This document shows positions 6,801-62,915 of a stretch of DNA of 64,000 nt, in pieces (the stretch's first letter is position 1; every line of letters begins with the position of its first letter). The stretch comes from Octopus vulgaris. Lineage: Eukaryota. The translations under genes were made by a program, and so were the position numbers. Where the stretch lies: NCBI GenBank assembly GCA_951406725.2, contig OX597825.1, positions 15,686,001 to 15,750,000 on the forward strand, in the 5' to 3' direction. Below the pieces are notes generated by a model. The model was not told where the DNA came from, did no database searches, and saw only the letters and a list, made by a program, of their open reading frames with translations.

Positions 6801-6908
6801 AATCAGGAATGTATGCATTAAACGGGAAAAGCTGAAAAGAATGCCAATCAAAAGATGGCGGAAAAATTCCAATTAAAAAAAAAATCTCTTAAGAAATATA
6901 TACATATA

Positions 6909-7139
6909 TATTTCTTTATTGCCCACAAGAGACTAAACATAGAGGGGACAAACAAGGACAGACAGAGGGATTAAGTTGATTACATCGATCCCAGTGCGAA
7001 ACTGGTACTTTATTTATCGACCCCGAAAGGATGAAAGGCAAAGTCGACCTCGGCGAAATTTGAACTCAGGACGTAACGACAGACGAAAAACCGCTAAGCA
7101 TTTCGCCCGGCGCGCTAACGTGTCTGCCAGCACGCCGCC
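6909..7139 (-). mobile_element. SINE family A, full-length
   Basis: Reverse strand begins ggcggcgtgctggcagacacgttagc (A-box region), then the B box and body, ending aaagaaata. Confidence 0.92.
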
Positions 7140-7448
7140 TCAAATATATACATATTTAATGAGTAAATATTCAAAAGTAAATTAATATCTGCGCTAATTA
7201 TAAATTGATAATTACAACAATAATATAGGTGGCTGCAGGCGTTAAATAGTATTAGATAGCTATAGATTTAAAATTCATATTTATCCTAAGGGCACACGAA
7301 GCACCTACCTGCTAGAAAGTGGAGTTAAAACCCTCAAATTAAACACCAATAACACTGAAAAATTCAACAGATAACAACACTAGAGCAAGACAAAATTTAG
7401 AACGCCAGCAGACTCCAGCGTGACGTGTTCAATTTTTCACTTGATAAC

Positions 7449-7503
7449 ATTTGCTGAAGAGAGTTGTGGGTTTTTCGCCCAAACTTGAAATTGCGATACA
7501 AGT
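7449..7503 (+). ncRNA. Type I hammerhead ribozyme, copy 1
   Basis: atttg-CTGAAGA-gagttgtggg...cccaaactt-GAAA-ttgcga-TA-caagt; predicted cleavage after 7498. Confidence 0.75.
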
Positions 7504-7933
7504 ATATCCAAAATTCCAAACTATATGGCATTAAGCTGTGATGGTATGTCAAAATTTATTTTTGCTCCTTTGCCCGACTATGTTGTTATCTGTTGAATTT
7601 TTCAGTGTCATTGGTGGTTAAGTTGAGTGTTTTAACTCCACTTTCTAGCAGATAGGTGCTCCGTGTTCCCTTATAATAAATATAAATTTTAATTGTATAG
7701 CTATCTAACGCTATTTAACGCCTGCAGCCTTCTAAGTTATTGTTGTTGTTATTATCAGTTTACATTTACTGCTGATAGTAATAACAATAACAATATCTCC
7801 ATAAATATTCGCTTTTGAATATTTACTCCTTATTATAAATATGTGTACACTGAAGTTGTTGTGAATTTGGCGCGAAACAACTCAGAACGCCAGCAGACTC
7901 CAACGTGAAAATCTAAATTTTTCCCTTGGTAAG

Positions 7934-7987
7934 ACTTGCTGAAGAGAGTTAAGGTTTTCCGCCCAAACTCGAAATCATGATACAAAT
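7934..7987 (+). ncRNA. Type I hammerhead ribozyme, copy 2
   Basis: acttg-CTGAAGA-GAGTT...AACTC-GAAA-TCATGA-TA-caaat; palindromic stem III ATCATGAT; predicted cleavage after 7982. Confidence 0.82.
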
Positions 7988-8661
7988 ATATCCAAAATAC
8001 CAACCTATATAGAATTAAGCTGTGATGATATGTCAAATCTTTTTTTTCTCGTTTGCCCGAGTACTGTTGTTATCGGTTGAAATTTTCAGTGTCGTTGGTG
8101 GTTGAGTCTTTTAACTCCACATTCTAGCAGATAGGCGATTCGTGTGCCTTTATCATAAATATATGCACATATACACACATGCATATATATATATATATCT
8201 TTTATTAAAATTTTAATACTTTTGATATATATTTAAAATAATATAAATTAATTAATCTTATGTATTGGCTTAAGTTTTTCATTGTTTGATTTGCCTAATA
8301 GTGGTTTTATCTCTAATTTAATATAACATATATATATATATATATATATATGACTGAATTCCTTCAGTTTCTAAGATACTTGTTGTACTCGTTACCGATT
8401 ATCCATTCTACACTCGTAACCATTTTATCATTCCAGAATAAAAGTATATTTAGGAAATTGATTGCAACTGAACGGGTCTGTCTCTTTAATATGGCCTAAA
8501 TTCATTTGTTACCTCTCGTTACCGTATTGGCTACAATTATTGACTGCATGTCGTTGATTATAATAGCTACGATCTCTTCCGCCAGCCATTCAGCTACGTC
8601 TCATATGTATGATATTTCTAAATATACACCTTCTGCACAGTCAGGTCTCATCAAAGCTGCA

Positions 8662-17739: not shown

Positions 17740-18157
17740 ACCTATTTCTTTACTACCCACAATGGGCTAAACACAGAGAGGACAAACAAAGACAGACAAA
17801 CAGATTAAGTCGATTATATCGACTCCAGTGCGTTACTGGTACTTATTTAATCGACCCCAAAAGGATGAAAGGCAAAGTCGACCTCGGCGGAATTTGAACT
17901 CAGAACGTAGCGGCAGACGAAATGCCTATTTCTTTACTACCCACAAGGGGCTAAACACAGAGAGGACAAACAAGGACAGACATAGGTATTAAGTCGATTA
18001 TATCGACTCCAGTGCGTTACTGGTTCTTATTTAATCGACCCCGAAAGAATGAAAGGCAAAGTCGACCTGGGTGGAATTTGAACTCAGAACGTAGCGGCAG
18101 ACGAAATACCGCTAAGCATTTCGCCCGGCGTGTTAACGATTCTGCCAGCTCGCCGCC
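17740..18157 (-). mobile_element. SINE family A dimer
   Basis: Head at 18157; two bodies joined at the recurrent junction (~17925). Confidence 0.92.
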
Positions 18158-44525: not shown

Positions 44526-44575
<50 letters not shown>

Positions 44576-44578
<3 letters not shown>

Positions 44579-44939
44579 AATTGAGTAGTTGAATGAATTA
44601 TCTTATTATAGAGAATTCGGTTAACCGATACCTGGGTAGCAAATTCACGTCAGAAAAACACGGTTGAAGCTACATGCCTAGGGCAGAGATCCCGTGCTAT
44701 CGTGTGGAAATTTGTGCGTTTCTTTAAATACAAATAAATGAAAGAATGGAGTTGAACGACGAATTAACAAAATTCCTTTATTTTCGACATATGTTTCGAA
44801 GGCTGCATATTCCTAATTTCAAAGGAATAAGCGGTGCATTATGTCGCCTTCTCATCAGGAAAAACAAGGAACTTATGTCAGCATCAAGATGCACAAAAAC
44901 TTTTAGATGACTGTCCACACGGAGCCCATAGCGATAATA
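44576..44939 (-). mobile_element. ~360-bp HHR-bearing island inserted in (TA)n
   Basis: Unique sequence between two TA tracts, containing a canonical HHR followed by AATAAA. Confidence 0.75.
44781..44863 (-). ncRNA. Canonical type I hammerhead ribozyme
   Basis: TTTTC-CTGATGA-GAAGGC...GCCTTC-GAAAC-ATAT-GTC-GAAAA; all core nucleotides present, 5-bp stem I, extended stem II, palindromic stem III ACATATGT, GUC site. Confidence 0.92.
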
Positions 44940-51867: not shown

Positions 51868-52005
51868 AAAAAGTTGAGTTGTGGGGTATCGCACGAGTGG
51901 GATTATATAAGAAAAAAGGTTTGAAAATGCAATTTAAACGATGTTTATTTACTTAACCGGTTTCACTCTTTGGTAAAAGATTGTCAAAAGTTACATTTAA
52001 GGAAA

Positions 52006-52233
52006 CATTGAATAATATGGGTTCAAAAAAAGTTTTTTACATAATTGTCACATTGAATATTATGCATTCAAAAAAGTTTTTTACATAATTGTCACATTGG
52101 ATATTATGGGTTCAAAAAAGTTTTTTACATAATTGTCACATTGGATATTATGAATTCAAAAATGTTTTTTACATAATTGTCACATTGGATATTATGAATT
52201 CAAAAATGTTTTTTTATACATAATTGTCACATT
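52006..52233. repeat. 44-bp minisatellite, about 5 units (mirrored at ~53082-53308)
   Basis: acataattgtcac recurs at 52039, 52083, 52127, 52171 and 52218. Confidence 0.95.
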
Positions 52234-52650
52234 ATTTGGGAAAATTTGGCAGAAAAAGGATAAAACAAATATATTATTGGGAATTGGTTGCGTTAATTAT
52301 TGGTTGTCGCAAATTGTCACATTACATGTATATATATACAATCTTTGGTATATATATACAGCGTTTTGACAGCAAAAATTAAAATGGCTTTTTTGTACAT
52401 CTCAGAATATTTTAAGTATGTTTTTACTGACCTGTCAGTATTAGCAGAAAGGCTGAACTGAGAGAACAGAAGAAGTAGCCAATGTGGTGTATACTTCCCC
52501 TTTATGCATGAATGATTTTGGGGTTATCAGGAGGTTAGTATGCAGGTGTGAATAGATGTGTCCGTGCCTGCTGGTCAGACAGCATCTGTTTGTCACACAC
52601 ATATATATACACACAAACACACACACACACAACAACACACACACACACAC

Positions 52651-52703
<53 letters not shown>

Positions 52704-53322
52704 TGTGTATATATATGTGTGTGACAAACAGATGCTGTCTGACCAGCAGGCACGGACACATCTATTCACACCTGTATACTAACCTCCTGATAACCCCAAA
52801 ATCATTCATGCATAAAGGGGAAGTATACACCACATTGGCTACTTCTTCTGTTCTCTCAGTTCAGCCTTTCTGCTAATACTGACAGGTCAGTAAAAACATA
52901 CTTAAAATATTCTGAGATGTACAAAAAAGCCATTTTAATTTTTGCTGTCAAAACGCTGTATATATATACCAAAGATTGTATATATATACATGTAATGTGA
53001 CAATTTGCGACAACCAATAATTAACGCAACCAATTCCCAATAATATATTTGTTTTATCCTTTTCTGCCAAATTTTCCCAAATAATGTGACAATTATGTAT
53101 AAAAACATTTTTGAATTCATAATATCCAATGTGACAATTATGTAAAAAACATTTTTGAATTCATAATATCCAATGTGACAATTATGTAAAAAACTTTTTT
53201 TGAACCCATAATATCCAATGTGACAATTATGTAAAAAAACTTTTTGAATGCATAATATTCAATGTGACAATTATGTAAAAAACTTTTTTGAACCCATATT
53301 ATTCAATGTTTCCTTAAATGTA

Positions 53323-54968: not shown

Positions 54969-55759
54969 AAGTGCGTAACTGGTACTTATTTAATCGACCC
55001 CGAATGGATGAAAGGCAAAGTCGACCTCGACGGAATTTGAACTCAGAACATAGCAGAGAGACGAAATACCGCTAAGCAATTCGTCCGGCGTACTAAAATT
55101 TCTGCCAGCTCGCCGCCTTTAGCGGAATTTTAACTCAGAACGTAACGGCAGACGAAATACCTATTTATTTACTACCCACAAGGGACTAAACACAGAGGGG
55201 ACAAACAAGGACAGACAAACGGATTACGTCGATTACATTGTCCCCAGTGCGTAACTGGTACTTAATTTATCGACCCCGAAAGGACGAAAGGCAAAGTCGA
55301 CCTCGGCGGAATTTGAACTCAGAACGCAACGACAGACTCAATACCTATTTCTTTATTACCCACAAGGGGCTAAACACAGAGGGGACAAACAAGGACAGAC
55401 ATAGGTATTAAGTCGATTACATCGACCCCAGTGCGTAACTGGTACTTAATTTATCGACCCCGAAAGGATGAAAGGCAAAGTCGACCTCGGCGGAATTTGA
55501 ACTCACAACGTAACGCAGACGAAATACCTATTTCTTTACTACCCACAAGGGGCTAAACACAGAGGGGACAAACAATGACAGACATAGGTATTAAGTCGAT
55601 TACATCGACCCCAGTGCGTAACTGGTACTTAATTTATCGACCCCGAAAGGATGAAAGGCAAAGTCGACCTCGGTGGAATTTGAACTCAGAACGTAGCGGC
55701 AGACGAAATACTGCTAAGCATTTTGCCCAGCGTGCTAACGTTTCTGCCAGCTCGCCGCC
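54969..55759 (-). mobile_element. SINE family A tandem array
   Basis: Head at 55759, then units of 183-184 bp (junctions ~55527, 55344, 55160); a further head-bearing partial copy at 54969-55118. Confidence 0.93.
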
Positions 55760-59889: not shown

Positions 59890-60301
59890 TATTTCTTTAT
59901 TGCCCACAAGGGGTTAAACATAGAGGGGTCAAACAAGGACAAAGGGATTAAGTCGATTACATCGACCCCAGTGAATAACTGGTACTTTATTTAACGACCC
60001 CGAAAGGTTGAAAGGCAAAGTCGACCTCGGCGAAATTTGCACTCAGAACGTAGCGGCAGACGAAATACCTATTCCTTTACTACCCACAAGGGGCTAAACA
60101 CAGAGAGGACAAACAAGGACAGATAAACGGATGAAGTCGATTATATCGACCCCAGTGCGTAACCGGTACTTATTTAATCGACCCCGAAAAGATGAAAGGC
60201 AAAGTCGACCTCGGCGGAATTTGAACTTAGAACGTAACGGCAGACGAAATACTGCTAAGCATTTCGCCCGGCGTGCTAACGTTTCTGCCAGCTAGCTCGC
60301 C
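59890..60301 (-). mobile_element. SINE family A dimer
   Basis: Junction at ~60068. Confidence 0.92.
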
Positions 60302-62136: not shown

Positions 62137-62915
62137 ACGAGCTGGTAGACACGTTAGCACGCCGGGCGAAATGCTTAGCGCTATTTCGTCTGCCGCTACG
62201 TTCTGAGTTCAAATTCCGCCGAGGTCGACTTTGCCTTTCATCCTTTCGGGGTCGATTAAATAAGTACCAGTTACGCACTGGAGTCGATATAATCGACTTC
62301 ATCCGTTTGTCAGTCCTTGTTTGTCCTCTCTGTGTTTAGCCCCTTGTGGGTAGTAAAGAAATAGGTACACACTTTTCTTATGAGCGGCGGGCTAGCAGAA
62401 TCGTTAGCACGCCCGGCGAAATGGTTAGCGATATTTCATCAGCAGTTAAGCTCTGAGTTCAAATTGCGCTGAGGTCGATTTGACTTTCATCCTTTAAAGC
62501 AGCGAGCTGTCAGAAACGTTAGCACGCCGGGCGAAATGCGTAGCCGTATTTCGTCTGCCGCTACGTTCTGAGCTCAAATTTCGCCGAGGTCGACTTTGCC
62601 TTTCGTCCTTTCGGGGTCGATTAAATAAGTACCAGTTACGCACTGGGGTCGATATAATCGACTTCATCCGTTTGTCTGTCCTTGTTTGTCCTCTCTGTGT
62701 TTAGCCCCTTGTGGGTAGTAAAGAAATAGGTATTTCGTCTGCCGCTACGTTCTGAGTTCAAATTCCGCCGAGGTCGACTTTGCCTTTCATTCTTTCGGGG
62801 TCGATTAAATAAGTACCAGTTACGCACTGGGGTCGATGTAATCGACTTAATCCGTGTTTCTGTCCTTGTTTGTCTCCTCTGTGTTTAGCCCCTTGTGTGT
62901 AGTAAAGAAATAGGT
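62137..62915 (+). mobile_element. SINE family A cluster (monomer, partial copy, dimer)
   Basis: 62137-62366, 62384-62495 and 62499-62915, the last with a 184-bp unit. Confidence 0.92.

Follow-up and report, generated by a model that had tools for sequence, protein, structure and literature searches.

A probable old retrozyme insertion with a Penelope-like layout in a TA microsatellite of Octopus vulgaris

Introduction

Is a short stretch of octopus DNA that carries two hammerhead ribozyme motifs in tandem the source of a small circular RNA, or is it the remnant of a mobile element, and if so of which kind? The locus that raises this question lies in a 64,000-nt stretch of the Octopus vulgaris genome (contig OX597825.1, positions 15,686,001 to 15,750,000 of the forward strand), which we refer to as the window and in whose coordinates all positions are given. 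The original prediction, made from the letters of the window, was of a candidate retrozyme: two hammerheads in tandem units of 484 nt, preceded by an inverted partial copy, from which a read-through transcript would release a monomer able to circularise. Here we examine the motifs, the layout of the locus and the family to which it belongs, and weigh the explanations that could account for them.

Two type I hammerhead motifs in direct repeats

Hammerhead motifs were searched for with a descriptor scan that includes helix checks (stem I of at least 3 bp, stem II of at least 5 bp), using 100 dinucleotide shuffles as controls. The scan recovered three motifs in the window, two at this locus and one unrelated to it, compared with none in the 100 shuffles at each of three settings. 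A looser hammerhead pattern gave 11 matches in the window, with 2.1 expected. These results support the claim of two homologous hammerheads in directly repeated units, with predicted cuts after 7498 and 7982 (Table 1). Comparison with Rfam yielded no hit at the gathering score, and no hammerhead family among the 19 hits at E≤10; as the Rfam models gave no match, the hammerhead call rests on the descriptor scan.

Both copies contain the type I core elements CUGANGA, GAAA and UH together with stems I, II and III, and both catalytic cores are intact in sequence. The core CTGAAGA starts at 7454 and 7939 and is followed by a 5-bp stem II closed by a loop of 15-16 nt, then by GAAA, a 2-bp stem III with a 4-nt loop, and UH. 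Stem I consists of 5 bp, a 2x1 internal loop and 4 more bp. In copy 1 one of the five proximal stem I pairs is a G.U, a further G.U sits at the base of stem II (10.1-11.1) and the palindrome of stem III is broken; in copy 2 the stem III palindrome is intact and stem I contains a C.A mismatch. A contig from another member of the family (X21 record 12, a loose end behind 7954) carries a different stem III palindrome, in which the 15.2-16.2 pair has changed on both sides. This covariation, a single case, supports the hammerhead reading. A CpG palindrome as the starting point from which both stem III loops decayed found no support, most copies having A at 7493. A pattern scan of metagenomes gave five loci, which were attributed to chance, since none has a stem I or a stem III and none gives a BLAST match to the element.

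A two-armed element in TA-rich DNA

BLAST of the region against the window revealed a direct pair (7399-7684 and 7884-8163, 83% over 287 nt), an inverted pair (7181-7379 and 7581-7782, 86%) and a second inverted pair (7157-7177 and 7812-7832), and no further relatives of the element in the 64 kb beyond simple repeats. Tandem Repeats Finder listed nothing at the element. The locus thus holds three element copies, 80-90% alike, arranged as a two-armed structure (7157-8163) whose outer ends both border on TA-rich DNA: a forward arm, 1.6 units long (7385-8163), is joined back-to-back, 5′ to 5′, to an inverted arm. The left boundary of unit 1 was taken from the alignment with unit 2 and from alleles in contigs of public runs. 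The predicted tandem of units 484 nt apart holds in that a direct repeat carries the two hammerheads, but the array is 1.6 units long, its second unit stopping at 8163; the inverted copy, put at about 180 bp, turned out to measure about 228 nt.

The inverted arm has a 26-nt deletion in the long hairpin, and its 3′ end abuts TA-rich DNA. Other family copies (records 11 and 19) read across this hairpin without a long gap; a local duplication as its origin was rejected on these grounds, the deletion being that of the inverted arm. The hairpin region (7730-7835) folds at -28.8 kcal/mol. Folded as a circle, the monomer of this decayed copy has a z-score of -3.0, which depends on the one long hairpin and becomes -0.7 without it. 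Both flanks of the element are degenerate (TA)n, in which no target-site duplication is readable.

Across six frames, compared by length, the stop-free frames of the element reach 78 codons at most, and no RT or GIY-YIG ORF is present; by eye, the ORF list of the window consists mostly of microsatellite frames, with no PLE-like ORF noticed, and no host gene was recognised. The lack of an ORF concerns the present locus, and ORF-bearing relatives are possible elsewhere.

Table 1. Positions of the features of the locus in the window
Feature	Position	Strand	Remarks
Left TA-rich target remnant	7140..7156	.	Doubles as the right target-site copy of the SINE-like repeat 6904-7139
Inverted arm	7157..7384	-	5′-truncated copy of the 3′ part of the unit (unit positions ~7577-7832); 87-90% like unit 1
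Forward unit 1	7385..7871	+	One full unit, ~484 nt; left boundary ±3 nt
Hammerhead copy 1, type I	7443..7508	+	Core 7454-7498; predicted cut after 7498
Monomer between the two cut sites (predicted)	7499..7982	+	484 nt, 34% GC, ORF-free; predicted as RNA
Long AC/GU-rich hairpin	7736..7798	+	A 9-bp hairpin (7802-7825) comes next; the pair sits between the two preferred 3′ ends
Forward unit 2, partial (0.6 unit)	7872..8163	+	~290 nt; its end, which corresponds to 7684 and 7277, borders on TA-rich DNA
Hammerhead copy 2, type I	7928..7992	+	Core 7939-7982; predicted cut after 7982
Right target remnant	8164..8200	.	Degenerate (TA)n, read from the sequence

A dispersed family with recurrent end points

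The family is known from contigs assembled from public runs, none of which contains another copy in full. Parts of the stretch were found in 17 of 24 runs, under six species labels. Four DNA runs were aligned on 7110-8320, and three presumed-RNA runs plus one DNA run on the monomer; the four-run alignment is represented here by 40 of 354 allele rows, 15 of 93 joints, 30 of 785 loose ends and 32 of 5,725 pieces. In DNA run X1, 179 contigs align on the monomer and 107 of them are less than 90% alike, revealing a dispersed multicopy family, which was seen under three species labels. At the variant sites listed, the carriers in X1 number 16-33 contigs between 7652 and 7800 (13 at a single site) and 2-8 at 7843-7924. 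Such a gradient of 5′ truncation is what one would expect of copying that begins near 7833 and in most cases breaks off early.

Among the records listed, the unit junction is crossed without an insert by X12 record 14 (7688-7990) and by a locus present in two runs (X2 record 22, the same as X6 record 29; 7792-7993). X1 record 5 crosses it as well, covering 7803-7996 and then 7530-7796, with only 30 letters left of 7833. The unit is closed in at least two other loci, in each of which the 3′ end region leads on through 7839-7873 to the hammerhead half, ORF-free and with at least 31 letters on each side. The opposite case envisaged at the outset, in which other copies are never tandem and always attached to a PLE ORF, is not what these loci display: X12 record 14 and X2 record 22 run from unit to unit ORF-free. 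Arrays of three or more units were not seen for the family in the public-run contigs.

The outer ends of the locus also recur. Among the ends listed for run X12, 10 contigs end at 7833 and eight at 7277 (equivalent to 7684 and 8163), all bounded by TA repeats. One contig of run X18 likewise ends behind 7833 on a TA repeat, and the TA-bounded end at 7684 recurs only in run X12 among the ends listed. These two recurrent end points are the outer ends of the present locus. Furthermore, a joint of 7318 to 7867, found in runs X1, X2 and X6, represents another inverted-plus-forward locus.

Probable insertion by a Penelope-type enzyme

We consider it probable that the locus is an old insertion of a non-LTR retrozyme, that is, a non-autonomous derivative of Penelope-like elements (PLEs), placed in a TA microsatellite by a PLE enzyme acting in trans, and that it has by now lost the capacity to cut and circularise efficiently. 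PLE insertions are described as 5′-truncated and partly tandem, often with an adjacent inverted copy and a tail, and as preferring microsatellites (PMC8557442). Purified PLE protein is reported to cut both strands of AT-rich DNA and to start at two internal RNA sites, ribozyme cleavage not being required (PMC11167929). From two-strand cutting and two internal starts we infer that a two-armed product could arise directly. The view that the inverted-plus-tandem layout is that of a PLE-type insertion is supported, as the locus matches the PLE scheme and its end points recur at other loci on TA repeats. What speaks against a PLE reading is the offset of about 150 nt between the ends, far above the 30-40-nt tail described for PLEs.

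The course of events that we propose is as follows. A tandem parent locus would be transcribed, and both strands of a (TA)n tract would be cut by a Penelope endonuclease. Reverse transcriptase would have two fixed internal starts on the RNA, at unit positions 7684 and 7833, separated by about 150 nt. The strand primed at 7684 would copy 1.6 units, passing the ribozyme site twice, and the strand primed at 7833 would copy 228 nt. Both cDNAs would then be joined 5′ to 5′ at about 7384/7385, and the three resulting copies would decay after insertion.

Both cut sites lie in the long arm, which extends 113 nt further upstream than the first of them. Since the cut site was crossed twice, the template should have been an uncut multimer or a circle, both of which explain the layout equally well. 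On balance we lean towards an uncut multimeric transcript, and regard an RNA circle as a serious possibility. Three contigs of other copies (X1 record 2; X21 records 11 and 13) have G at the cut position 7982 and are predicted to be uncleavable, and two of the three have a similar downstream stretch in common. They are possibly a ribozyme-dead branch that still spread, and they fit the view that at least some of the family was copied from RNA that had not been cut. A more speculative and rather doubtful version would combine these elements: Penelope-type twin priming would take place on one RNA circle, from two fixed starts about 150 nt apart that bracket the conserved hairpin pair (a 'tail' of four times the described length), the branch with G at the cut would have kept spreading, and the hairpins, rather than the ribozyme, would recruit the Penelope enzyme.

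Age and sequence history of the locus

The junction between inverted and forward arms was found under two further species labels, organism B (record 24, 20 differing letters in 241) and organism F (record 8, 35 in about 350). The arrangement is hence old. Private changes in the roughly 100 nt common to the three copies number 3, 10 (in unit 2) and 6 (p=0.14, in a test of low power); such counts are compatible with three copies of one age, stemming from one insertion event.

It had been proposed that each hammerhead copy keeps one perfect half of a consensus stem I. This agrees with the letters of the family since, among the allele rows listed, other copies have mostly C at 7450 and G at 7986. 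The organism F version of the locus has C at 7450. That of organism B has T at 7450 and, by subtraction of depths (14.2 left, at a record depth of 17.5), apparently G at 7986. As organism F keeps C at 7450 and organism B apparently keeps G at 7986, the changes are two separate late transitions, and their complementarity is most likely due to chance. The same family letters, at 7450 in organism F and apparently at 7986 in organism B, led us to reject an origin of the outer halves from one subfamily and of the inner monomer from another, with a joint at the cut site.

The organism B version as a whole is 92-93% like the window (X6 records 24 and 28), yet at five other family loci organism B shows exactly the same mismatch counts as organism A. 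This divergent version may be a deep allele, a paralog or a product of fast local decay. Within unit 2, the late changes at 7964 and 8131 match the unit 1 letters at 7480 and 7652, which hints at possible gene conversion between the units.

Alternative explanations

In the most ordinary alternative, the locus would be pseudo-LTR debris of an autonomous PLE, with no separate non-coding family. The layout is indeed the textbook layout of a PLE, PLE insertions are mostly 5′-truncated (bioRxiv 10.64898/2026.07.22.740005), and the public-run contigs contain no long array. Moreover, one long contig of 1,011 nt (X1 record 1) matches only at 7511-7700 and exits the unit upstream of 7511; the remaining 821 letters have no counterpart on the monomer and could be PLE body. 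We nevertheless find this explanation unlikely, because at least two other loci cross the unit junction into the hammerhead half without an ORF, because the hammerheads lack the marks of the minimal PLE type (there is no extra base before stem II, and stem I is extended), and because no stop-free frame in the element exceeds 78 codons. A local DNA accident, in which replication or recombination produced the tandem and inverted copies on the spot from a solo ribozyme fragment, with no retrotransposition of an array, is hardly credible. Inverted and tandem duplications can arise in AT-rich DNA, and the unit 1 letters shared by the late changes of unit 2 give a hint of conversion in place, but the unit junction, both outer ends and the inverted-forward layout all recur at other loci, which largely refutes such an origin.

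The remaining alternative is that of a working source of a 484-nt circular RNA, in which the complementary changes in stem I would have been kept and the ribozymes would cut as a swapped pair. Hammerheads of this sort are described as cutting poorly alone and better as dimers (PMC4209133, PMC7229834), and the same is stated for PLE hammerheads in a review (PMC6765202). In favour of such a pair, both catalytic cores are intact, proximal stem I is perfect at the would-be circle joint (5/5 paired) and also between the outer halves (5/5), and the order of the alleles, from C-G through T.G to T-A, is the one that a compensated change would follow. However, the stem III duplex required between copy 1 and copy 2 amounts to only -0.4 kcal/mol, versus -7.2 for two copy-2 stems III, and the changes at 7450 and 7986 occurred separately. 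Nor does the ribozyme region show better conservation than the rest, the copies being 80% alike upstream of the cut and 88% downstream (p=0.09), and one of nine predicted frog dimers was reported to cut in vitro (bioRxiv 10.64898/2026.07.22.740005). We therefore judge a working source to be very improbable. The active hammerhead fold lies 7-9 kcal/mol above the free minimum in all four forms computed. The defects in stems I, II and III appear to be later decay, and the present copy has probably lost efficient cutting and circularisation. The claim that this locus is a likely source of the circle is not supported, the copy being old and decayed, with defects in all three stems and a weak duplex between its stems III. 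Among the runs listed as containing the stretch there was no RNA run; the three presumed-RNA runs yielded 4, 3 and 0 contigs on the monomer, all less than 90% alike and none from this locus or spanning a unit, and are uninformative either way.

Comparison with known retrozymes and Penelope-like elements

At the level of sequence, the locus can be placed among the metazoan non-LTR retrozymes. Like those of coral, mussel and axolotl (Cervera and de la Pena 2020, PMC7229834; Li, Clavereau and Pollet 2026), it has a non-coding tandem unit with GC below 50% and dispersed copies, and it shares with them one type I hammerhead per unit and a proposed mobilisation by PLEs (PMC7229834; bioRxiv 10.64898/2026.07.22.740005). 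The 2-bp stem III with a small palindromic loop resembles that of axolotl HHR_Amex2 and of invertebrate motifs (PMC7229834). The unit of 484 nt is above the range of 150-450 bp given in PMC7229834, but within the 51-972 bp of the 2026 survey (bioRxiv 10.64898/2026.07.22.740005). For the retrozymes of coral, mussel and axolotl, circles were shown by northern blot (PMC7229834), whereas the present locus holds 1.6 units, is decayed and has a monomer that is predicted.

Insertions of EN+ PLEs (PMC8557442; PAc of Anolis, PMC11167929) are also similar, with a partial tandem, an inverted 5′-truncated copy at the 5′ side and 5′ truncation, as well as a (TA)n or AT-rich target, a hammerhead in the repeat and two internal end points. 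They differ in their RT/GIY-YIG ORF, which is absent here, and in a tail of 30-40, as opposed to about 150 nt between the end points here (7684 versus 7833). The minimal hammerheads of PLEs (Cervera and de la Pena 2014, PMC4209133) share with the present ones the type I architecture, a palindromic stem III and a predicted need for dimers. Their stem II, however, has 7-8 bp and is preceded by an unpaired base, while here it has 5 bp without such a base, and stem I is extended past an internal loop (PMC4209133). As judged from these motifs, the hammerheads of the locus seem nearer to the canonical metazoan type I than to the minimal PLE motif. Retrozymes have been argued to be PLE derivatives from phylogeny and co-occurrence (bioRxiv 10.64898/2026.07.22.740005).

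Both this kind of element, the animal retrozymes, and its Penelope-like link are already in print. Among the papers listed by literature searches, titles and abstract openings gave no description of a cephalopod retrozyme. The 2026 annotation of octopus repeats (PMC13282606) reports recently active Penelope-like families, and its main text, as available, contains 0 mentions of ribozyme or hammerhead. The 484-nt family may thus be undescribed so far. The single locus is of little weight, being an aged representative of an element type that has been described; the family is one more genomic case of animal retrozymes with Penelope insertion marks.

Neighbouring repeats in the window

The window is AT- and microsatellite-rich. 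A SINE-like repeat (6904-7139) adjoins the element, with a 14-nt target duplication in the same TA-rich site (match at 6898-6911). This repeat is abundant in the window (for example at 17741-18107, 55122-55711, 59890-60252 and 62546-62915), often in tandem units of 184 nt.

The third type I hammerhead recovered by the scan (44786-44858, minus strand) lies in a solo insert of about 350 nt (~44575-44935) with (TA)n on both sides. Its stem II has 6 bp and a long loop 2, its stem III is palindromic and its stem I is extended. The insert, which matches neither the present element nor any other part of the window, probably stems from another PLE or retrozyme family, as a truncated copy.

Finally, a 44-nt tandem array occurs twice in opposite orientation, at 52005-52233 on the plus strand and at 53083-53309 on the minus strand, about 850 nt apart. 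The two arrays enclose a direct duplication near 52441-52876 and could constitute a foldback-type element.
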